DNA of 64,000 nt, taken from an uncultured bacterium. Its GTDB lineage: Bacteria; Bacteroidota; Rhodothermia; Rhodothermales; UBA10348. The stretch lies in contig CALSQR010000002.1 of assembly GCA_943788505.1 (NCBI GenBank), positions 1,244,161 to 1,308,160 of the forward strand, read 5' to 3'. Shown piece by piece: positions 1-11,183 of the stretch; position 1 is the stretch's first letter; each line of letters opens with the position of its first letter. The notes beneath the pieces were generated by a model that was not told the DNA's origin, did no database searches, and was given only the letters and a program-made list of their open reading frames with translations. Position numbers and translations under genes: made by a program.

Positions 1-306
1 GTCTGGATTTTCCATACGCCAGCGCAGAAGAACCTGAGGGTTGGTGGGGTCGGAAATGTCGATGATGTCCGTTCCGCGTTCGGAGTTTGGACCGACCGTT
101 CCGCGGGAAACGTAGGCATATGGGCGGCTTAGCTCTTGCTCGATCTCGAGGTCCATGGTATTCAGGATTCCACCGAGTGGAATGTGACCTTCGACCGTGA
201 TGTTATCGGATCCCGGCTTCAGGGTGGTCCAGGGAGTGTCATCCTGCGCCATAGCCGCCGGCGCCATTAAAAGAATGGCTGCGAACAATGGAAAAAGCTT
301 TTTCAT
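1..306 (-). CDS. LVIVD-type beta-propeller protein, secreted (paralogue 4 of the array; only the 5' part is in the window)
   Basis: Absent from the ORF track because it has no stop in the window. The reverse-strand ATG at 306..304 gives MKKLFPLFAAILLMAPAAMAQDD (signal peptide), then GHIPLG, DLEIEQE, RPYAYV and DIIDISDP. These motifs are colinear with the N-termini of the three complete paralogues to the right. Confidence 0.7.
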   Translation of the reverse strand, partial: MKKLFPLFAAILLMAPAAMAQDDTPWTTLKPGSDNITVEGHIPLGGILNTMDLEIEQELSRPYAYVSRGTVGPNSERGTDIIDISDPTNPQVLLRWRMENPD

Positions 307-392: not shown

Positions 393-1712
393 TTATCGTG
401 TGCCCTCTTTGGACTCTTCGTCCCATTTCTGGACGGAGGAAATATCAGGTTGACCCCAGTCTTCTCCGTTCCAGCCGTTGAAGCCATCCATGCGGAAGGT
501 CCAAAAACCCGTAGACATGTCAGAAACGACGATGAGTCCATCTTCATTCCGGACGTCTACGCCAAATGCACCATTGATGACAGGATTGAATCCTTCCTGG
601 TTGTTGCCAATGTAGGTGTCGTAATACCCAACCGTTTGAGGGTTTTTGGGGTCCATGAGGCTGAAGACCTGAAGGCCATCGAGGTAGCCGCTGACAAATA
701 CGTACGGCCAGCGGACTTCGTGATTGTGGCTCAGGTTTTCCCAGTTAGCGGTCCAGGCCGAAATAGGCTGGTTTATGTTAAGCTGATCGCCATCAAGTGC
801 CGGCTTTAGGTCAAAAATCCGCAGCGGTGCATACTGATACTCGGCTTCCGCGACCACATATCGTCCGTCAGGGGAGGGAGTAAAGGTGTGTCCCCACGTG
901 ACTCCCGAGATGTTCTGAAGCGTTACGCGGATTTCCGGATTGTGGATATCCGTAATATTCCACACGTAGTACCCACCGGATCCTCCCCCGTAAAAACGAT
1001 CTTCTCCCGAGTCGGGGTGAAATGCCACGTAATGGTCGTGATACGAGCGTCGTACGCTTTCAGGCTCATACGTGGGAATCGTTGCCACGTACGAATTTTC
1101 TATGTCTCCAGCCGCAGCCATGTTCAAGTCAAACACCTGAACCATGTCTCCGCGGACCGTAGCAAGCAAATAAATATTGCCATCGGAATGCTTGTAGATA
1201 AAGATATTATGCATTCCGCCCGGATTGTCAGGAAGAATCCAACGCCCTACTTCAGTTGGCTCATTGGGGAGATCGGTCACGTCAAACAGGACGGCACCCA
1301 ATTCATAGTGCGGGCCAGCGCTGAATTCGAATGACTGGACCACGTAATAGCGTCCACCGGTCTTGAAATACTTCACGTCCATGCCACCTCGGTTGGGTAG
1401 CAAGTCCTGATATTCGAGACGGAATTCATAGATGACTTCCGGTTTTGCCGGATTGGACAGATCAATTACATCCATGCCTTTCGGTCCGCCATCGACAATG
1501 GAGGCCCGACCGACATACGCATATGGGCGGTCCATGTCCTGCTCCAATTCGATGTCAGTCACACTGGAGTGCTTGCCGAGCGGAATATGCCCGACCACTT
1601 TCATATTGTCCGAGCCCCGGTCAATGGGGGTGGCCTGCCCAAATGCAGTCGAAGTAAGCATGCCGGCAAGTGCCAGTGATGCGAGGAAACGGATGGGTTT
1701 CATGAGTGTCAT
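393..1712 (-). CDS. LVIVD-repeat beta-propeller protein, secreted (paralogue 3)
   Basis: 439 aa with signal peptide MKPIRFLASLALAGMLTSTAFGQ. It carries repeated blade motifs of the type GMDVIDLSNP, VLFDVTDLP and LQVFSLMDP, plus a C-terminal GLIVVSDMSTGFWTFRM (LVIVD-like). It is closely similar to 1712..3121. An alternative ATG lies at 1703. Confidence 0.8.
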   Translation of the reverse strand: MTLMKPIRFLASLALAGMLTSTAFGQATPIDRGSDNMKVVGHIPLGKHSSVTDIELEQDMDRPYAYVGRASIVDGGPKGMDVIDLSNPAKPEVIYEFRLEYQDLLPNRGGMDVKYFKTGGRYYVVQSFEFSAGPHYELGAVLFDVTDLPNEPTEVGRWILPDNPGGMHNIFIYKHSDGNIYLLATVRGDMVQVFDLNMAAAGDIENSYVATIPTYEPESVRRSYHDHYVAFHPDSGEDRFYGGGSGGYYVWNITDIHNPEIRVTLQNISGVTWGHTFTPSPDGRYVVAEAEYQYAPLRIFDLKPALDGDQLNINQPISAWTANWENLSHNHEVRWPYVFVSGYLDGLQVFSLMDPKNPQTVGYYDTYIGNNQEGFNPVINGAFGVDVRNEDGLIVVSDMSTGFWTFRMDGFNGWNGEDWGQPDISSVQKWDEESKEGTR

Positions 1713-3121
1713 TATTGGTTGTCAGGGATAGAATTCCAGTCTTGGGCACTGGAAACGTTGGGCATGCCCCAGTCTTCGCCATTCCAACGGCCGAAGCCGT
1801 CCATTTTAAAGGCCCAGAAGCCGGTGGTCATGTCACTGACGACGATGAGGCCATCCGCATTGCGGACGTCCACTCCCCACGCGCCGTCATAGACTTGCCA
1901 AGTGTATGGACTGCCGAGTCGCTCCATGGCGGCTCCACGGTCATTATGAATACCGTTGAATGTGTCGTAGTAGGCGACTGTATATGGGTTTTCTGGGTCT
2001 ACCATATTGAAAACACCCAGTCCGGTCTGATATCCTGATACGAACACGTACGGCCAGCGCACCTCGTGGTTGTGCGCAATACTTTTCCAGTCGGCATGCC
2101 AGGCACCGACGGCATGGTCAATATTCTTGTCGGGTAGCTCGCCATTGAGCGCTGGGCGTAAATCAAAAATGCGCAGCGGCTGGTATTGGAATTCCGTTTC
2201 GCCGATAGCAAAATTACCGTCGGGCGTGGGAGTAAAGGTGTGACCCCATGCCACGCCGGGAACGCCAACCATAGTGGCAAGCAATTCGGGGTTGCCTAGA
2301 TCCGTGACATTGTACACGTAGTAGCCGCTGCCGCCGCCGCCATAGAATCGGTCCTGTCCTGTTTCGGGATGGTACTGAACCATAAAGTCGTGATAGCCCC
2401 GGGACCACATCGCGTCAGATTCGTGGACTGGGATGCGGGCGATGAGCTCGCGGTTGTCATCTCTCAGAACAGGATCCATCTCGGTCTGGTCGCCATCGAC
2501 GAACTGCCCCATGTCGAAGACTTTTGCATAGCCGGCAGACGTGGCAAACAGCAAGGGACTCCCCGAGCTGTGGTTGTACATAAATATGTTGTGGAAGCCG
2601 CCGGGTGAATCACCTTGGCGAACGCGCCCCACTTCAGTCATCTGCTCTGGAAGGTCCGTGACGTCGAACACGATCGCACCAACGTCAGAATTGGGCCCAG
2701 ATTGGCGTAGCTGCATAGACTGTACGTAATACGTCCTGTCGTTGTGCTTAAAATAGCGCCCGTCCATGGCACCTCCTGTGTGGAGGTCCTGGTTTTCAAT
2801 GCGCCAGCGCCGAATCACTTTCGCGTTGTCAGGGTCCGACAGGTCAATCACATCGAATCCGATTTCCCCATTCCGACGCGCCACGTAGGCATAGGGTCGA
2901 GATGGATCCTGTTCGATTTCGACGTCAGACACGCTGCCAGGAGCGCCGAGTGGAATATGGGAGAGGACCTGAATATTGGCAGAGCCCCGCATACCGGGTG
3001 GCGGCGGGTGGTCGGGTTGCTGGATACCCTGTTGCGCCGATGCGGTCACGGACACTAACGCCGCGAACGCCAGTGCGGTAAGGCCTGAAAGAATGCGATT
3101 GAATCTCATTGGGCTCACCAT
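1712..3121 (-). CDS. LVIVD-repeat beta-propeller protein, secreted (paralogue 2)
   Basis: 469 aa with signal peptide MRFNRILSGLTALAFAALVSVTASAQ. It has the same motif order as 393..1712 (HNIFMY, GYHD, WGHTFTP, AHNHEVRWPYVFVSGY, GLIVVSDMTTGFWAFKM). Its stop overlaps the next ATG by 1 nt. An alternative ATG lies at 3109. Confidence 0.8.
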   Translation of the reverse strand: MVSPMRFNRILSGLTALAFAALVSVTASAQQGIQQPDHPPPPGMRGSANIQVLSHIPLGAPGSVSDVEIEQDPSRPYAYVARRNGEIGFDVIDLSDPDNAKVIRRWRIENQDLHTGGAMDGRYFKHNDRTYYVQSMQLRQSGPNSDVGAIVFDVTDLPEQMTEVGRVRQGDSPGGFHNIFMYNHSSGSPLLFATSAGYAKVFDMGQFVDGDQTEMDPVLRDDNRELIARIPVHESDAMWSRGYHDFMVQYHPETGQDRFYGGGGSGYYVYNVTDLGNPELLATMVGVPGVAWGHTFTPTPDGNFAIGETEFQYQPLRIFDLRPALNGELPDKNIDHAVGAWHADWKSIAHNHEVRWPYVFVSGYQTGLGVFNMVDPENPYTVAYYDTFNGIHNDRGAAMERLGSPYTWQVYDGAWGVDVRNADGLIVVSDMTTGFWAFKMDGFGRWNGEDWGMPNVSSAQDWNSIPDNQ

Positions 3122-4413
3122 GTCATTGAACGGGTTGGTCCATTTTCCCAGTCCTGTACGGAGCCCACGTTGGCAAAGCCCCAGCCACGGCCATCCCAGC
3201 CTTCGAATGCTTCCATTCGGAAGAGCCAGAGGCCCGTGTTGACGTCGGAGACGGCAATCAATCCATCATAATTGCGGACATCCACATCCCACGCGCCATT
3301 TCGGTCCGTCGCTTCATTGGAAAGGGACGCCTTTGGGCCATCCCACGTATGATAATACCCGACCGTGTAGGGGTCGAAAGGATTCATCATGTTGAATACC
3401 TGCAAACCATCATCCATGGATGCCACGAAAACGAACGGCCATCGCAATTCATGATTGGCAGCATAATTCCGCCAGTCCGCCGTCCACGCGCTAGCAGCCA
3501 CTCGGACCCTAGGAACGGTGCCGTCGAAGACCGGTCGAAGATCGAAAATTCGCATCGGTGCGGTACGGTAGCCTGCAGCCGTAACGAGATGCGTCCCATC
3601 GGGTGTGGGAGAGGCGCCATGACCAATCTGAACGGCTGCCGAGCTAACAGAGGCCAACGGAGAGGGGTTCATGGGATCAGTGATATCGAACACCCAATAA
3701 CCGCCAGCACCTGCCGTATAAAGTCGGTCGGTTTCAGTCTCGGCATCCCATTGGGCCATCGTGCTGTGATACCCGTAGTCCACATTCGGCACTTCTTCGG
3801 GAAGATCGTAAGAGGCTACAGGTGTGCTGTTGCCGTCGAGGAAGCGTCCAACGTCATATACATCGATAGGACCACCACCGGTAGCCATCAAATACGAACG
3901 TCCGTTCGAATGGCGATAGGCAAAAACGTCGTGATATCCATCCTCTGCCTCAGCAGAACCACTTGGATCAAACTGACCTTCATCGGGATCCGTTACCTCC
4001 AGCACTGAAAGACCGGAGGAGTGCGTCACACCCAAATACGTCCGAGTGCCATGGCGGAAAAGGGCAAGGTCGTTCACCGTGGTGGCATCGGTCGCCCATT
4101 CGCCTACCTGAATCGGATGGCTAGGATCATTAATGTTGATTGCTACGACGCTGGAGCCCTCGTTTTGATTACGGGCTACAAATACGAACGGCCGTCCTTG
4201 GTCTTGATCTATGACCAAATGCCCTGTGCCTCGTCCAAGAGATTCAAAGCCACCCGAGGGAGACGTTGACGCCCCCATTCCTCCCAGTGCAAGATGTCCG
4301 CTGAGCTCAATATTGCGACTGCCGCGTGAGCCATCATCTTGTCGGGCCTCAGAAGGGGAGGACAATAACAAGAGTAGTGCCACACCGACGACAAATGCCG
4401 GGTGATTTTTCAT
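3115..4413 (-). CDS. LVIVD-repeat beta-propeller protein, secreted (paralogue 1, the most diverged)
   Basis: 432 aa with signal peptide MKNHPAFVVGVALLLLLSSPSEA. It keeps the family motifs in order (YHDVFAYRHS, GYHS, IGHGASPTPDG, ANHELRWPFVFV, GLIAVSDVNTGLWLFRM). It overlaps the next gene by 7 nt. Confidence 0.75.
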   Translation of the reverse strand: MKNHPAFVVGVALLLLLSSPSEARQDDGSRGSRNIELSGHLALGGMGASTSPSGGFESLGRGTGHLVIDQDQGRPFVFVARNQNEGSSVVAININDPSHPIQVGEWATDATTVNDLALFRHGTRTYLGVTHSSGLSVLEVTDPDEGQFDPSGSAEAEDGYHDVFAYRHSNGRSYLMATGGGPIDVYDVGRFLDGNSTPVASYDLPEEVPNVDYGYHSTMAQWDAETETDRLYTAGAGGYWVFDITDPMNPSPLASVSSAAVQIGHGASPTPDGTHLVTAAGYRTAPMRIFDLRPVFDGTVPRVRVAASAWTADWRNYAANHELRWPFVFVASMDDGLQVFNMMNPFDPYTVGYYHTWDGPKASLSNEATDRNGAWDVDVRNYDGLIAVSDVNTGLWLFRMEAFEGWDGRGWGFANVGSVQDWENGPTRSMTW

Positions 4414-4507: not shown

Positions 4508-5506
4508 TTACGAATCCGGCTCTTGATTTGCAAAGATTCCGTGTGCCCCAGTAAGCGCAGTCAGTAACTGGTCGTATACCTCGATGAGAACCTGCCTCAA
4601 GGAAGCGGCCCTTTCATGGAATTCTCGCTGCTGAGTAACAAATTCAGCCCTTCCTGCCGGATCTTCGACTGGGACCGCATCGATGCCAAACCCAGAGACA
4701 TCATATGGACTCGACGCCATGTCCAGTTGCCGAATATCCATAGTCAACTCGAATGCGTCCATGATCAACTCGGATGGAACCCATGGCGTCCTTTTGAAGG
4801 CCCATCGATAGACATCCATGTTCGCATGAAGACATCCCGGTTGTTCCATTTGGGGCATGCTTTGTCCGTCCAAAACATGAGCATTCAACGGCGTAGCTGA
4901 CTCCGTAAAAAATCGGAAGGCATCATAATGAGTGCATCGAAGCCCAGCGTCATCAACCGTCTGAGCTAGTTTGTCCACCGAAACGCGCAGGGGAAGCTGT
5001 TCATGACGAGGCGCTTCACTTCGGTAGATCATTGCCCACTCGTGAAGTCCAAAGCATCCATAAACAGGCTTGCGCGCGGCGGTTAGCCTCAGCAGATTGT
5101 GAATCCAGCGGGTGGCAGTGATATACCGTTCTGCCCGTCGTCCCATCGTATCTGAGCCTGGCCACACGTAGACCCCATCGGGATGGGGTCGGACACCCAG
5201 AATACCGGGAAGATCGGCGGGTGATGCGCCTTCAAGTAGAATGCCCAATCCGGGGCTCCATCGACGCAGATGAGAGGGACGGAACGAATAGTATTCGAAA
5301 AGAAAATCGGCTACTGGATGTTTTTCGTGCCGTGATCGGCGTAGAAGGTGTGGCGCGATCAGTTGTTGATATCGCTCTTCGTGGCGCTCTTTCGTCTCGT
5401 ACCACTCGGCGCGACTGATCCTGCGCAGGAAGTCATCGCCAACGGGAATGTGCTCGGCCGCGGTCCGCGGAAGAAGGGTGTCTTGTGTTGGGCTAGAAAT
5501 CTGCAT
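4508..5506 (-). CDS. Conserved protein of the family commonly labelled 3-methyladenine DNA glycosylase (function unverified)
   Basis: Motifs HPVADFLFEYYSFRPSHLRRW, CFGLHEWAMIYR, THYDAFRFFT, EQPGCLHANMDVYRWAFK and LDMASSPYD match that family as I remember it. The ORF-track start at 5626 would overlap the divergent PPIase gene by 19 nt, so I prefer the ATG at 5506. The start is uncertain. Confidence 0.6.
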   Translation of the reverse strand: MQISSPTQDTLLPRTAAEHIPVGDDFLRRISRAEWYETKERHEERYQQLIAPHLLRRSRHEKHPVADFLFEYYSFRPSHLRRWSPGLGILLEGASPADLPGILGVRPHPDGVYVWPGSDTMGRRAERYITATRWIHNLLRLTAARKPVYGCFGLHEWAMIYRSEAPRHEQLPLRVSVDKLAQTVDDAGLRCTHYDAFRFFTESATPLNAHVLDGQSMPQMEQPGCLHANMDVYRWAFKRTPWVPSELIMDAFELTMDIRQLDMASSPYDVSGFGIDAVPVEDPAGRAEFVTQQREFHERAASLRQVLIEVYDQLLTALTGAHGIFANQEPDS

Positions 5507-5607
5507 GTCATCAAAATAGGATGCTACAGGGACCGATTCTGTAAAGCTGCGTTGGAAAGCGTATACGAATGTAGATTGGCCAGTCAAATGACTATTTTTC
5601 ACGCTAT

Positions 5608-6222
5608 ATGATCCAGCAACGTCCAACTCACTACTTCCACCTTCGTCTTTTAAAGGTGTTTGCAGCTGCTATCCTGATTTTCTCGATGGGCTGTTCCTCG
5701 AATCAATCGCTAGTTTCGGTATCGATGTATACCTCCGAAGGCCAAATTGATATCGTCGTGGATACTCTGGCCGCACCAATTACCACATCTAACTTTCTCC
5801 GGTATGTGGATGCCGGCATGTATGATGGTGGTTCATTTTTCAGGGTGGTCAGAATGGACAATCAGCCAAGTGACTCTATCCCAATTGAAGTCATTCAAGG
5901 TCGTGCCAACATGGCTTTCAATGAGCAGTTCTTTGACCCTATTCCGCTAGAAAGGACATCGGAAACTGGCATATACCATCGTGATGGGGCAATTTCTATG
6001 GCAAGGGGTGGACCGGATACGGCAACTCACTCCTTCTTTTTCACTATTGGTGAGCAGACATCGCTCGATTTTGGTGGACAACGAAATCCGGATGGGCAAG
6101 GGTTTGCTGCGTTCGGAAAAGTGACTGATGGAATGGACGTAATCCAGGTTATTCAGCAAGGTGAAACCGAGCAGCAAACGCTGTTGGTGCCAATTACTAT
6201 TGATAGTGTTCGAGTTAACTGA
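5608..6222 (+). CDS. Peptidyl-prolyl cis-trans isomerase, cyclophilin type, lipoprotein
   Basis: 204 aa with lipobox LIFSMGC. Cyclophilin-like stretches include APITTSNFLRYVDAGMYDGGSFFRVV, GAISMARGGPDTATHSFFFT and AAFGKVTDGMDVIQ. Confidence 0.85.
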   Translation: MIQQRPTHYFHLRLLKVFAAAILIFSMGCSSNQSLVSVSMYTSEGQIDIVVDTLAAPITTSNFLRYVDAGMYDGGSFFRVVRMDNQPSDSIPIEVIQGRANMAFNEQFFDPIPLERTSETGIYHRDGAISMARGGPDTATHSFFFTIGEQTSLDFGGQRNPDGQGFAAFGKVTDGMDVIQVIQQGETEQQTLLVPITIDSVRVN

Positions 6223-7701: not shown

Positions 7702-7732
7702 CACTAGGCCACTAATTCACTAGGCCACTAAT
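7702..7732. repeat. Tandem direct repeat, 2 x CACTAGGCCACTAAT separated by one T
   Basis: Copies at 7702..7716 and 7718..7732 are identical. CACTA occurs four times. The repeat lies between convergent gene ends (7609 and 7755) and follows a CGTCGC/GCGACG hairpin at about 7681..7700. Confidence 0.8.
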
Positions 7733-7754
7733 GCGCCAATGGGTCACGGCTGAA

Positions 7755-8144
7755 TCATTCGTCGAAAAAGACTCGGATTGCCACGACTCGTCCGCGCCGC
7801 GTAGAACCCGTTCCAAGCACTTCGCCAGCAATCTGGGCAGCTGCACTTGGCTCTTTTATTTCTTCGATGAGCAAGCCGTTAGCACCAAGCTCAGCGGCAC
7901 GCTCCCGGGACTTGCGCAACATTTTACTTTCCGTCGTTAGCTGGGCTTCACCCTGCGCGTGGATGATGGCAATTGGTTTCCAATCAGCAGGGATGTCGTC
8001 TTCGCTGAGGTAGATGACAACGTCTGCAGGATCGACGGGTGGGTACGTAGTGCCATCGAGAAGGGTTGCTTGGGTCTGCACACATCCGGCCAGGAGCAGC
8101 AGTGCAAGAAAAGGGAAGAGCAGGGACTTCATATCAGTAACCAA
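7755..8144 (-). CDS. Hypothetical lipoprotein
   Basis: 129 aa with a signal peptide and lipobox LLLLAGCVQ. I recognised no domain. Confidence 0.55.
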   Translation of the reverse strand: MVTDMKSLLFPFLALLLLAGCVQTQATLLDGTTYPPVDPADVVIYLSEDDIPADWKPIAIIHAQGEAQLTTESKMLRKSRERAAELGANGLLIEEIKEPSAAAQIAGEVLGTGSTRRGRVVAIRVFFDE

Positions 8145-8286
8145 TTAGAGATTTGATAGGACGCGGCCGGTGGATGGTGTTCATAGAGATAGCCGTGGTG
8201 ATGCCTATAGAGGTAACACATCTGGCGCACTACGGTGTTTCAATATGAGGTCTCCCTTTTCCAACGTTTGTTGGATCAGGTACCGA

Positions 8287-9819
8287 CTAGCGGACCGGGA
8301 TCGTATCCACGCGGCGGAACTGAGCAAGTCCTTCTTTCTTGCTTCCGGACTCTGAGCGGCCCATACCGGTCGAAACAATGCGGCTTGCAGAGACGCCGTT
8401 GTCTACGTAGAACTGTTCGACAGCGCGAGCGCGGTCGTCAGACAGTTCCTGTGGACGACGTTCGCCAGGTGCTGACCAACCTTCAACGCGGACGTTGAGG
8501 TTCGGGCACTCAAGTAGGATCTCGAGGTTTTCCTGCAACTGAGCACGTCCTTCTTCGGTGATGGCAGACGAGTTGCGATCGAAGAATGCCGAGTTCATTT
8601 CCGTGAGTTCACGGCAGATGGCAGCTTCGTAAGGAACCACTGTGATCGTCATTGTGCGGCTTGTTACGCCGTTGCAATTTTCAACTTCCAGCGTAACAGT
8701 GTAGGTACCAGCTTCGCTGTAGGTATGCGTTGCGCTAGCTCCCGTGCCGGTTGATCCGTCTCCAAAGTCCCAACGCCATTCACCGTCCGTACCCGTTACG
8801 TTAGCACTGAACTCAACTGCTGTCTGCGTGTCAGGGCTCATGTTCGATGCGCGCATCGATGTGATGGCGGCTGGCAGGCAAGGATCCTTGACGGAAACGG
8901 CACAGGTCATTGCTGAGCTGTATTTGCCACTACCGTTAGAAGCAGAAACGCCGACTGTGTAGTCACCAGCGCGGGTGAACGTGTGGGTAGCAGTCATGCC
9001 TTCGGCAGACGAACCATCTCCAAACGTCCACAAGTAGTCAACCGGCATCGTCGCATTATCATTGTGCGATGCGGTAAACGTAACCGGCGTACCGGCATCA
9101 ACTACGTCAGCAGGACAGATCATGTCGGTTAGTTCGACAGGCTGAACGCGTTTGAAGTTGAACTTGAGACCAACCACATGGGCTCCAAGGAAGTCGAGAC
9201 CAGAAAAACCGTTGTCATCACGGCCGTCGGCTGCGTCATCCGGCGTCATTGCATTGACACCCGTCTGGAGGAAGAACGACGTTCCAGAGTTCACGAAGAA
9301 ATCCAGACCGAAACCGAGGCTTGCGCCATACGTCATTTCGTCCTGCTCAACACAGCCAGTTCCTGTACCTGCGGCACAAGTTGGGGAGTATACGTTTGAC
9401 GTTCCTCCTCCAATGCCGACGCCCGCAAACCAGTATGGAGCAATCTTTTTATCAGACAGCAGCTTACGAGCAACCAGGCCTACCGACCAGCGGCTATTCG
9501 GGTGATCTGTTGCGTCAGTAGTGGCTTCAAAGTCTGTGATCTGGGTATATTGGCCGGTTGTAAACCGAAGACCGAGGCTGTAGCTCGGTGTGAACTGGTA
9601 CCCCAGTTCGGCTCCCAGATTGTACGGGAAGGTATCGAACATGTCACCGTCGAAGTTGAACGGTGACTTTTCGTTATCTCCCATGTAGTATGAGATTCCG
9701 ACCTGTGGACGGATATAGACTGTTTCCGATCCTCGTTCGACCTGCGCCGATGCTGACTGCGGGAGAAGACCGGCAGCAGTTAGAGCAGTGAACAGAAAAA
9801 GTAGTACAAGTTTCTTCAT
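8287..9819 (-). CDS. OmpA-family outer-membrane protein with N-terminal beta-barrel and two PKD domains
   Basis: I prefer the ATG at 9819 (MKKLVLLFLFTALTAAGLLPQSASAQ) to the track start at 9900. An N-terminal porin-like barrel is followed by two PKD-like repeats (WTFGDGSSAEGMTATHTF and WDFGDGSTGTGASATHTY) and a C-terminal OmpA domain (RVEGWSAPGERRPQELSDDRARAVEQFY). Confidence 0.85.
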   Translation of the reverse strand: MKKLVLLFLFTALTAAGLLPQSASAQVERGSETVYIRPQVGISYYMGDNEKSPFNFDGDMFDTFPYNLGAELGYQFTPSYSLGLRFTTGQYTQITDFEATTDATDHPNSRWSVGLVARKLLSDKKIAPYWFAGVGIGGGTSNVYSPTCAAGTGTGCVEQDEMTYGASLGFGLDFFVNSGTSFFLQTGVNAMTPDDAADGRDDNGFSGLDFLGAHVVGLKFNFKRVQPVELTDMICPADVVDAGTPVTFTASHNDNATMPVDYLWTFGDGSSAEGMTATHTFTRAGDYTVGVSASNGSGKYSSAMTCAVSVKDPCLPAAITSMRASNMSPDTQTAVEFSANVTGTDGEWRWDFGDGSTGTGASATHTYSEAGTYTVTLEVENCNGVTSRTMTITVVPYEAAICRELTEMNSAFFDRNSSAITEEGRAQLQENLEILLECPNLNVRVEGWSAPGERRPQELSDDRARAVEQFYVDNGVSASRIVSTGMGRSESGSKKEGLAQFRRVDTIPVR

Positions 9820-9896
9820 TGTGGTCCTCTTTGAGACGTTACGTCTGGCGCTAACGGTACAAAATAGCTGACTGGTTTTCCAGTTTAAGCGGGGTT

Positions 9897-11183
9897 TCAA
9901 GTAGCATTGGCCCGGCGACCGATCTGGATATACTCCCGATGGTTCTGGCCGATGTATATCTGTCTTGGGCGATTGATGCGTGTGGCTGGGTCGTTTTTCA
10001 TCTCCATGTACTGAGAAATCCAGCCTGGAAGACGTCCTAGAGCAAACATCACGGTGAACATGTTTGTTGGGATACCCATTGCTCGGTAAAGAATACCGGA
10101 GTAGAAATCCACGTTCGGGTACAAGCCCCGAGCTACGAAGTACTCATCTTCCAACGCAATGCGTTCGAGCTGCTTGGCAATATCCAATAGTGGATCGTCG
10201 ATCCCAAGCTGCCCTAATACTTCATCCGCCGTCTTTTTGATCACGCGAGCACGCGGATCAAAATTCTTGTAGACACGGTGTCCGAAGCCCATAAGGCGAA
10301 ACGGATCGTTCTTGTCTTTCGCTTTCCCGACGTATTTCTGGAAGTTGCTTCCGTCTCGACGGATCATTTCCAGCATGTCGATGACTGCCGTGTTGGCACC
10401 ACCATGAAGTGGTCCAGAAAGTGCACTGATTCCAGCCGAAATAGACGAGAAAAGGTCGGCGCCCGAGCTACCTACCATTCGAACGGTCGATGTCGAACAA
10501 TTCTGTTCGTGGTCGGCATGCAAAATGAGCAGCATGTCGAGCGTGCGAACGAGCAGTTCGTTGACTTCGTATTCTTCACTCGGCACGGCAAACATCATGT
10601 GCAGGAAATCGCCTGCATAGCTCAGATCATTCCGTGGGTAGATGTACGGCTGCCCGATTGACTTCTTAAAAGAGAAGGCGGCAATCGTGTTCAACTTGGC
10701 CAACAACCGAATAATGTTCAGGTTGACGTCTTCTTCCGACTGTCCATTTGGATAGTAAGCGGACAATGAGGAAACGATGGCAGATAATACGCTCATCGGA
10801 GGGGCTGAAGCAGGATACCCTTCGAAAAAGCGCTTCATATCTTCATGCAGAAGACTATGCCGGGCGATTTCCGTGTGGAAAACGTCTAATTCATCACGTG
10901 TTGGGAGCTGGCCGTAAATGAGCAAATAGGCTACGTCTAAGAATGACGAATGCTCTGCAAGGTCCTCGATCGAATAGCCTCGATACCGGAGAATGCCTTT
11001 CTCTCCATCAATGAAGGTAATAGCGCTTTCACACGAACCAGTATTTGCGAATCCCGGATCCACGGTAATTGCGCCTGTTTGGCCACGCAGCTTACCGATA
11101 CCGAAGCCTACCTCGTTCTCCGTTCCAACGGTAATGGGGAGGTCAATATCCTGATCGTTAATAGTTAGACGAGCGTTATCCAT
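9897..11183 (-). CDS. gltA: Citrate synthase
   Basis: 428 aa with canonical citrate synthase blocks (LRYRGYSIEDLA, LILHADHEQNCSTSTVR, GPLHGGAN, MGFGHRVYKNFDPRA). Confidence 0.97.
   Translation of the reverse strand: MDNARLTINDQDIDLPITVGTENEVGFGIGKLRGQTGAITVDPGFANTGSCESAITFIDGEKGILRYRGYSIEDLAEHSSFLDVAYLLIYGQLPTRDELDVFHTEIARHSLLHEDMKRFFEGYPASAPPMSVLSAIVSSLSAYYPNGQSEEDVNLNIIRLLAKLNTIAAFSFKKSIGQPYIYPRNDLSYAGDFLHMMFAVPSEEYEVNELLVRTLDMLLILHADHEQNCSTSTVRMVGSSGADLFSSISAGISALSGPLHGGANTAVIDMLEMIRRDGSNFQKYVGKAKDKNDPFRLMGFGHRVYKNFDPRARVIKKTADEVLGQLGIDDPLLDIAKQLERIALEDEYFVARGLYPNVDFYSGILYRAMGIPTNMFTVMFALGRLPGWISQYMEMKNDPATRINRPRQIYIGQNHREYIQIGRRANAT

Follow-up and report, generated by a model that had tools for sequence, protein, structure and literature searches.

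Propeller gene array in the window

The window analyzed here is a 64,000-nucleotide stretch of contig CALSQR010000002.1 (positions 1,244,161 to 1,308,160 of the forward strand; assembly GCA_943788505.1) from an uncultured bacterium of the Rhodothermales. It begins with an array of three complete and one truncated paralogous genes, W1 to W4, for secreted β-propeller proteins, in which an earlier note made from the sequence alone had pointed out five invariant histidines as a possible metal centre. Residue numbers follow W1 unless another protein is named, and the genes of the array are as follows.

W4: 1..303, minus strand; N-terminal 101 residues of a fourth paralogue, truncated by the window start
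W1: 393..1712, minus strand; 439-residue LVIVD-type seven-bladed secreted propeller with a complete predicted site (open reading frame and AlphaFold2 model)
W2: 1712..3121, minus strand; 469-residue paralogue with a complete predicted site (open reading frame and alignment)
W3: 3115..4413, minus strand; divergent 432-residue paralogue in which the five histidines are kept, both glutamates (E289 and E291) and H329 are absent, and D53 is replaced by His

The three complete genes are arranged head to tail, with W1 and W2 sharing 53–55% identity and W3 sharing 37–38% with W1. Successive genes overlap by 1 nucleotide at the W2 stop and W1 start (1710–1714) and by 7 nucleotides at the W3 stop region and W2 start (3115–3121), which suggests translational coupling within the array. 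Each copy has a signal-peptide-like hydrophobic N-terminus that, read by eye from the sequence, ends in AFG-Q, ASA-Q, or SEA-R. The translation of W4 contains a signal peptide, the motif GHIPLG, and the equivalent of D53, and it is 77% identical to copy 3 of the array in L002, a related genome with six copies. Because W4 is truncated at the window start and matches a copy of that array, the array of the window extends past its first position.

Predicted structure of W1

The AlphaFold2 (AF2) model of W1, computed with a 51-sequence alignment, has a predicted local distance difference test score (pLDDT) of 92.1 and a predicted template-modeling score (pTM) of 0.90, as compared to a pLDDT of 38 for the W1 sequence alone. 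It is a seven-bladed β-propeller made up of an N-terminal strand (residues 37–43) and 27 further strands, in which six blades are four-stranded and blade 7 has three strands and is closed by the N-terminal strand. Together with the signal-peptide-like N-termini, this agrees with the proposal in the earlier note that the array encodes secreted propellers.

The innermost (A) strands of the seven blades start at residues 51, 110, 166, 224, 276, 330, and 382. In propellers, the A strands have their N-terminal ends around the entrance to the central channel, on one face, and four of the five histidines lie at this place in the W1 model: H168 stands third in A3, H225 second in A4, H275 directly before A5, and H331 second in A6, with H329 just ahead of the same strand. 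The equivalent positions in blades 1, 2, and 7 are occupied by D53, D112, and G384, respectively. The suggested ring of histidines contributed by successive blades is therefore found for H168, H225, H275, and H331, which share one position in blades 3–6 at the channel mouth and which, judging from topology and homology, would converge in three dimensions.

The fifth histidine, H175, does not belong to this ring. It directly follows A3 (166–174), seven residues along from H168, and lies in a conserved turn (YxHSxG). Because it is at the opposite strand end from H168 and hence on the other face, it cannot be part of the shared site, and we regard it as a predicted turn residue of that face. The same pair limits the idea of one histidine per blade to four of the five, as H168 and H175 occupy the two ends of one strand in blade 3. 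After blade 7, W1 continues into a C-terminal tail (residues 409–439; window positions 393–488) with equivalents in W2 and W3, which is Trp-rich and conserved family-wide as F.GW.G..WG.PN.SS.QDW.

Conservation of the histidines and their acidic partners

In a MAFFT alignment of the three complete copies, all five histidines are invariant, and every motif that had been quoted for them is found. H168 lies in GGMHNIF, GGFHNIF, and DGYHDVF (in the order W1, W2, W3, here and below), followed seven residues later by H175 in YKHS, YNHS, and YRHS. H225 is part of SYHD, GYHD, and GYHS; H275 is part of WGHT, WGHT, and IGHG, with (S/T)PxPDG two residues on; and H331 is part of NHEVRWP, NHEVRWP, and NHELRWP. 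The earlier note overlooked a sixth invariant histidine, H42 (GHIPLG, SHIPLG, and GHLALG), as well as the acidic partners D53, D112, E289, and E291. It is the presence or absence of these acidic residues that distinguishes the intact sites of W1 and W2 from the incomplete site of W3. H329 is common to W1 and W2 only. Taken together, the predicted site of W1 consists of D53, D112, H168, H225, H275, E289, E291, H329, and H331.

With three sequences alone, 6 of the 12 histidines of W1 are invariant as compared to ~27% of all columns, a difference that is not significant (binomial p = 0.07). Wider sampling yields a main clade of 171 W1/W2-type copies from 80 species-level genomes, with a mean pairwise identity of 65% (range of 50–98%). 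Within this clade, 7 of the 12 histidines are invariant as compared to 90 of the 439 columns (p = 0.0045), whereas the other five drift freely. H42, D53, D112, H168, H175, H225, H275, E289, E291, H329, and H331 are each invariant in 169–171 of the 171 copies, where it should be borne in mind that the presence of E289 and E291 is the criterion by which the clade is defined. Among the 120 closest homologues (60–86% identity), each histidine is kept in 119 or all 120 sequences, and E289 and E291 are invariant. The codons of the residues in question are listed below, with counts referring to the main clade unless stated otherwise.

W1 H42: 1587..1589, minus strand; end of the N-terminal closing strand, sixth invariant histidine
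W1 D53: 1554..1556, minus strand; strand A start of blade 1 (51–56), 120/120 close homologues, His in W3
W1 D112: 1377..1379, minus strand; strand A start of blade 2 (110–118), candidate bridging carboxylate, 120/120 close homologues
W1 H168: 1209..1211, minus strand; strand A start of blade 3 (166–174), aligns exactly with Sb-PTE H258, 171/171
W1 H175: 1188..1190, minus strand; A–B turn of blade 3, opposite face, outside the ring
W1 H225: 1038..1040, minus strand; strand A start of blade 4 (224–232), topological position of Sb-PTE H317, 171/171
W1 H275: 888..890, minus strand; directly before strand A of blade 5 (276–279), aligns exactly with Sb-PTE H389, 171/171
W1 E289-A290-E291: 840..848, minus strand; strand B end of blade 5, beside H275, with E291 aligning exactly with Sb-PTE E407
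W1 H329-N330-H331: 720..728, minus strand; strand A start of blade 6 (330–334), both histidines present in 170/171, the remaining one being a gap
W2 histidines, minus strand: H177 2591–2593, H184 2570–2572, H244 2390–2392, H294 2240–2242, H352 2066–2068
W2 further residues, minus strand: H55 2957–2959, D66 2924–2926, D120 2762–2764, E308 2198–2200, E310 2192–2194, H350 2072–2074
W3 histidines, minus strand: H161 3931–3933, H168 3910–3912, H216 3766–3768, H265 3619–3621, H321 3451–3453
W3 substituted positions, minus strand: A279 3577–3579, G281 3571–3573, A319 3457–3459

Beyond the paralogues, the histidines are not invariant in the family, their places being taken in the W3 lineage and in distant members by R, Q, Y, F, V, T, L, and M, among others. 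The only one of the five that is conserved across the wider family is H175 (at least 90% in the family alignment). The residues that are conserved family-wide are different ones, namely H175, S176, D238, D282, R334, D386, R388, N389, D391, and others, and most of them lie in A–B turns of the opposite face in the AF2 model, in keeping with structural residues.

These data bear on the view that the propellers are inert surface or adhesion repeats, in which the invariance of the histidines would merely reflect recent common descent of the paralogues. Such a view is in keeping with papers mentioning LVIVD proteins, in which these are treated as cell-surface or attachment proteins, and with the lack of significant enrichment in the three sequences of the window. 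It is difficult to reconcile, however, with invariance in 171 copies from 80 genomes at 50–98% identity while other histidines drift, with the match of the positions to a crystallographic metal site described below, and with the absence of an anchoring or sorting domain. We therefore give this explanation very little credence.

W3-type copies

We observe 22 W3-type copies, each of which is the first gene of a multi-copy array. E289 and E291 are absent in all 22, and H329 is replaced by Glu in 21 and by Arg in one, the residue in W3 itself being Ala. Between species, H225 is replaced by Y/E/F/V, H275 by R/V/T, and H331 by F/L/M/V, and some copies are without nearly all of the ring histidines (pattern RAAKAETTGRF). 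The same loss of histidines is seen in distant representatives of the 50% clusters. Despite these replacements, the W3-type copy stays a conserved member of the array.

Because the ring histidines are replaced both in W3-type copies and in distant members, they are not needed for the fold, and their strict invariance within the main clade speaks for a function. W3 of the window retains the four ring histidines in an incomplete site that is without both glutamates and H329. It comes from a lineage with a decaying site and, judging from its sequence, is probably inactive or has another role. We also considered the co-occurrence of H225 and H275 as a line of evidence and set it aside: it is perfect in 19 distant representatives and broken in the W3-type set, where several copies combine H225 with R275.

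Homology to the metalloenzyme Sb-PTE

When W1 is compared to the sequences of the Protein Data Bank (PDB) with phmmer, only chance matches are obtained. With the family profile (hmmsearch), there is one significant solved structure, 5hrm/5ioj (E = 1.7e-5), which is Sb-PTE, a phosphotriesterase (haloalkylphosphorus hydrolase). The same structure is the top match of the W1 model in Foldseek (5hrm; E = 3.6e-12, TM scores of 0.62/0.56), the other 48 matches listed being generic WD40 propellers. According to the title of its structural description, Sb-PTE of Sphingobium sp. TCM1 has a two-metal centre in a seven-bladed propeller (Mabanglo et al., Biochemistry 2016, title cited in PMC11656708 and 10.1101/416081).

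A global profile–profile alignment (hhalign) against a 61-sequence Sb-PTE profile has a probability of 98.5% (E = 3e-14) and runs in register from the closing strand (NMKVVGHIPLG versus GVRLVGRTDIW) to blade 7. With cheaper gap penalties, the alignment becomes unstable.

In Sb-PTE, E201 is reported to be the bridging residue, with H258 and H317 as ligands of one metal and H389, E407, and H475 as ligands of the other. All six of these numbers hit the expected Glu or His in a 583-residue orthologue encoded on plasmid NZ_CP022749, which is 98.6% identical over a 73-residue test fragment, and the six positions, along with H545, are invariant in 61 of 61 members of the Sb-PTE family. As read from the sequence, the ligands are located at the strand A starts of blades 2, 3, 4, 5, and 6, with E407 at the strand B end of blade 5.

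In the profile–profile alignment, H168 pairs exactly with H258, H275 with H389, and E291 with E407, while H329 pairs with H475 only when the 171-copy main-clade profile is used. The cyclic order from blade 2 onward is alike in W1 and Sb-PTE: a carboxylate, His, His, His with a Glu from the neighboring strand, and His. W1 and W2 have a counterpart for each of the six ligands (D112, H168, H225, H275, E291, and H329/H331), those for D112 and H225 being assigned by strand position only. In W3, the Glu is absent (A279 and G281 in W3 numbering).

The prevalence of WD40 propellers in the Foldseek list besides 5hrm raises the question of whether the histidines are structural, forming either a hydrogen-bond network in each blade like that of the Gly-His of WD40 proteins or a site for a structural ion in the channel, with no catalysis. 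Two of the motifs do contain a literal G-H before strand A (WGH275T and VGH42I), and a structural ion in the channel is common among propellers. W1–W3, however, give no match to a Pfam WD40 profile at E <= 1, and the W3-type orthologues and distant members retain the fold signature without these histidines, the residues that are conserved family-wide being others in turns of the opposite face. Furthermore, loss of the histidines and absence of E289 and E291 go together in one lineage, which is better explained by one shared site than by separate networks in each blade. Overall, we regard a purely structural role as improbable.

Genomic context beyond the window

We surveyed 80 genome loci (L008–L087), 70 of which have at least 2.5 kb of downstream sequence. 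In 48 of these 70 loci, a gene for a 183-residue protein and a gene for a multicopper oxidase lie immediately downstream of the propeller genes on the same strand, with a gap of 75–440 nucleotides in 47 of the 48. These loci come from Rhodothermales, Longimicrobiales, other Gemmatimonadota, and bins labeled Gammaproteobacteria. In another two loci, the 183-residue gene stands at the end of a contig; 12 have a Gfo/Idh/MocA oxidoreductase gene in place of the oxidase, and eight have neither.

The size of the array varies up to 8 tandem copies. A syntenic Rhodothermales assembly has six paralogues, all with the full site, followed by the 183-residue gene and the oxidase, and a Gemmatimonadota assembly has a single propeller gene followed by the same two genes; between these two assemblies, the 183-residue proteins are 50% identical and the oxidases 61%. 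The operon coordinates are 18279–20554 in L002 and 11365–13612 in L006, both outside the window. In the four closest full-array relatives (L008–L011, 87% identical to W1), a W3-type copy and five or six full-site copies precede the 183-residue gene and the oxidase, and the array of the window very probably has this arrangement at its end.

The oxidase resembles CueO/CopA and has a Met-rich N-terminus, and its sequence shows all four copper motifs. The 183-residue family has the invariant C-terminal motif W.GP.V.RGMSRSG.MHTMAGHGPFE.ENCA.YGY and is matched by no model in Pfam or NCBIfam. Given these partners, the ring could alternatively be a copper site or a site for more than two metals, and the propellers would then cooperate with both partners, either in handling copper in the periplasm or in a shared oxidation pathway. 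The recurrence of the two genes in 48 of 70 loci speaks for this alternative, as do the invariant RGMSRSGxMHTMAGHG...C motif and the composition of the site, which with up to six His, two Asp, and two Glu goes beyond what two metals need. On the other hand, the sole solved homologue uses Mn or Zn rather than Cu, the ring residues include neither Cys nor Met, and the oxidase is replaced by a Gfo/Idh/MocA gene in 12 loci and lacking along with it in eight. Moreover, a metal is not identifiable from gene neighborhood alone. Nitrous-oxide reductase (NosZ) and thiocyanate dehydrogenase are absent from both the sequence matches and the top 50 fold matches. The analogy to the CuZ site of NosZ that had been drawn in the earlier note consequently does not stand, every test of NosZ membership having come out negative, and we consider a copper or larger metal site in W1 and W2 to be unlikely.

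In its most far-reaching form, this line of thought would unite the array of propellers with the 183-residue protein and the multicopper oxidase in an undescribed three-part periplasmic system of Rhodothermales and Gemmatimonadota, with the ring as a site for copper or for a cluster of three or more metals, the paralogues (up to eight) as a means of diversifying substrate or partner specificity, and the W3-type copy as a non-catalytic subunit. We offer this only tentatively and hold it to be doubtful. If true, it would make metalloenzymes, and not adhesins, of the LVIVD "surface repeat" proteins at large.

Several further features of these loci can be described. The loci with the Gfo/Idh/MocA gene are L031–L041 and L055, in which the propeller is single-copy and the gene lies directly downstream of it. 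The one protein of this kind that was read through, in L005 (same contig region as L033), has a twin-arginine signal, and the best NCBIfam similarity is to glycoside 3-dehydrogenase, far under the cut-off. A second, divergent pair consisting of a 183-like gene (34–39% identity) and a second multicopper oxidase (47–51%) is found upstream in 13 loci (L049, L050, L053, L054, L057, L063, L064, L069, L072, L074, L075, L078, and L080; at ~5.7–7.9 kb in most), which belong to Longimicrobiales, other Gemmatimonadota, and "Gammaproteobacteria" bins. Finally, in L006, the propeller gene is adjoined by a gene (7718–9760, minus strand) for a 680-residue Big_2 and LVIVD protein, in which histidines can be seen by eye at similar places in the blades (GGVHNAF, SRVHDVW, GSTHAVF, and GTHNIWV), although its divergence precludes a reliable alignment to the ring positions. 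A histidine ring may therefore be general in LVIVD propellers.

Other genes in the window

Directly upstream of the array, there is an open reading frame of 372 residues (4508–5626, minus strand) with no Pfam match and without a signal peptide. A homologue of 310–338 residues occupies the same place in L002–L004, with the common motif CLHANMD.YRWAFKR. At 8287–9900 (minus strand), the window encodes an outer-membrane protein with an N-terminal β-barrel, two PKD domains, and a C-terminal OmpA domain, which is syntenic in L002–L004. The neighbors of the array in the window (cyclophilin, JmjC/RoxA-like, the OmpA-PKD protein, citrate synthase, UDG, and MgsA) are housekeeping genes unrelated to it and provide no functional clue.

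A predicted two-metal site in W1 and W2

Based on the above, we propose that W1 and W2, and probably W4, are Sec-exported LVIVD-type seven-bladed propellers in which D112, H168, H225, H275, and H329/H331, from the N-terminal ends of the A strands of blades 2–6, would line the channel mouth, with E289/E291 added by the strand B end of blade 5 and D53 by blade 1. Two divalent metal ions would be bound there and would activate a bridging water or hydroxide, such that W1 and W2 would act as periplasmic or secreted enzymes. We estimate the probability that W1 and W2 are exported enzymes with an Sb-PTE-like two-metal site at the channel mouth to be roughly 60%. The fold, the places of the residues in the strands, the homology to Sb-PTE, the pattern of conservation, and the operon are what the analysis shows. 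The proposal of two-metal binding derives from the blade-for-blade match to the Sb-PTE ligand set, from which we infer metal binding, the number and kind of the metals, and catalysis by W1 and W2 as the most likely account. In this form, the original suggestion of a metal site is retained for the four histidines that match Sb-PTE ligand positions and given up for H175.

A number of observations weigh against this proposal. Foldseek identity to Sb-PTE is only 16%. H225/H317 and H331/H475 are left unpaired by the automatic alignment, and since hairpin insertions shift these residues, their equivalence is one of strand position only. D112 falls 1–3 residues off E201 and is an Asp instead of a Glu. 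When only one Sb-PTE sequence is used, the alignments lose register by one or two blades, owing to the resemblance of the blades to each other. The conserved polar residues (D53, E289, H329, and H42) exceed what a two-metal site needs. Finally, neither of the operon partners, the multicopper oxidase or the Tat-exported Gfo/Idh/MocA protein, gives a hint of phosphotriester hydrolysis.

Significance

The family to which W1 and W2 belong is large and without annotation: at E <= 0.001, it has 2,640 matches in a collection clustered at 90% and 6,134 representatives at the 50% level. Where sources name its members, they are called "hypothetical protein" or "LVIVD repeat-containing protein", the usual view of LVIVD proteins being that they are inert repeats of the cell surface. 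The nearest genomes are Rhodothermales assemblies with 87–89% identity to W1. To our knowledge, Sb-PTE is the only LVIVD-type propeller that has been studied as an enzyme, and it is regarded as a recent xenobiotic-degrading oddity. If W1 and W2 share its metal site, the two-metal propeller would instead represent an ancient, widespread type of enzyme whose natural substrates are yet to be discovered, the W3-type copy would provide a built-in negative control, and the multicopper oxidase would be a defined operon partner.

Comparison with known systems

Among annotated families, W1–W3 come closest to two that have no assigned function, and our literature searches on LVIVD and choice-of-anchor B proteins yielded nothing on metal sites. 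On the Pfam LVIVD model (PF08309; gathering threshold of 20.2 bits), W1 and W2 score 11.0 and 13.3 bits and W3 has no match, while the Sb-PTE orthologue itself reaches only 16.2 bits. On the choice-of-anchor B model (TIGR04312; cut-off of 100 bits), W1, W2, and W3 score 59.0, 42.4, and 38.5 bits. These weak matches place W1–W3 in the same broad superfamily of bacterial secreted propellers, although they remain under both cut-offs and no C-terminal sorting signal is seen. With WD40 proteins, they share the fold class and the location of histidines near the strand A start. Unlike in WD40 proteins, the histidines are found in only four of seven blades and are lost in a sister lineage of the same fold.

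NosZ is likewise a seven-bladed propeller with a metal cluster held by channel-mouth histidines of successive blades. W1–W3, however, end shortly after blade 7 without a CuA cupredoxin domain (Pfam, NCBIfam), their signal peptides are without a twin arginine, and no nos accessory genes are nearby. The sites also differ in composition, with four or five His and four carboxylates in W1 and W2 versus seven His around the Cu4S cluster of NosZ.

A channel-mouth metal site in a propeller is a known design, and Sb-PTE is a detectable relative of W1 and W2. Both are LVIVD-type propellers with seven blades and N-terminal strand closure, and in both a carboxylate and four His come from the strand A starts of blades 2–6 and a Glu from the strand B end of blade 5. 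At ~16% identity, W1 and W2 nonetheless form a separate family without a Pfam or NCBIfam model above cut-off, and Sb-PTE likewise matches no NCBIfam model above cut-off. In contrast to Sb-PTE, they carry Asp in place of the bridging Glu and the extra invariant residues D53, E289, H329, and H42, and their family has a Trp-rich tail (GWNGxxWGxPNxSSxQxW) to which nothing in Sb-PTE is similar. Whereas Sb-PTE is found on sphingomonad plasmids, the W1/W2 family occurs in Rhodothermales and Gemmatimonadota, where its genes form tandem arrays (up to 8 copies) and share an operon with a multicopper oxidase. The Asp at the bridging position, the extra invariant residues, the Trp-rich tail, the arrays with a degenerate leader copy, and the multicopper oxidase operon set this family apart.

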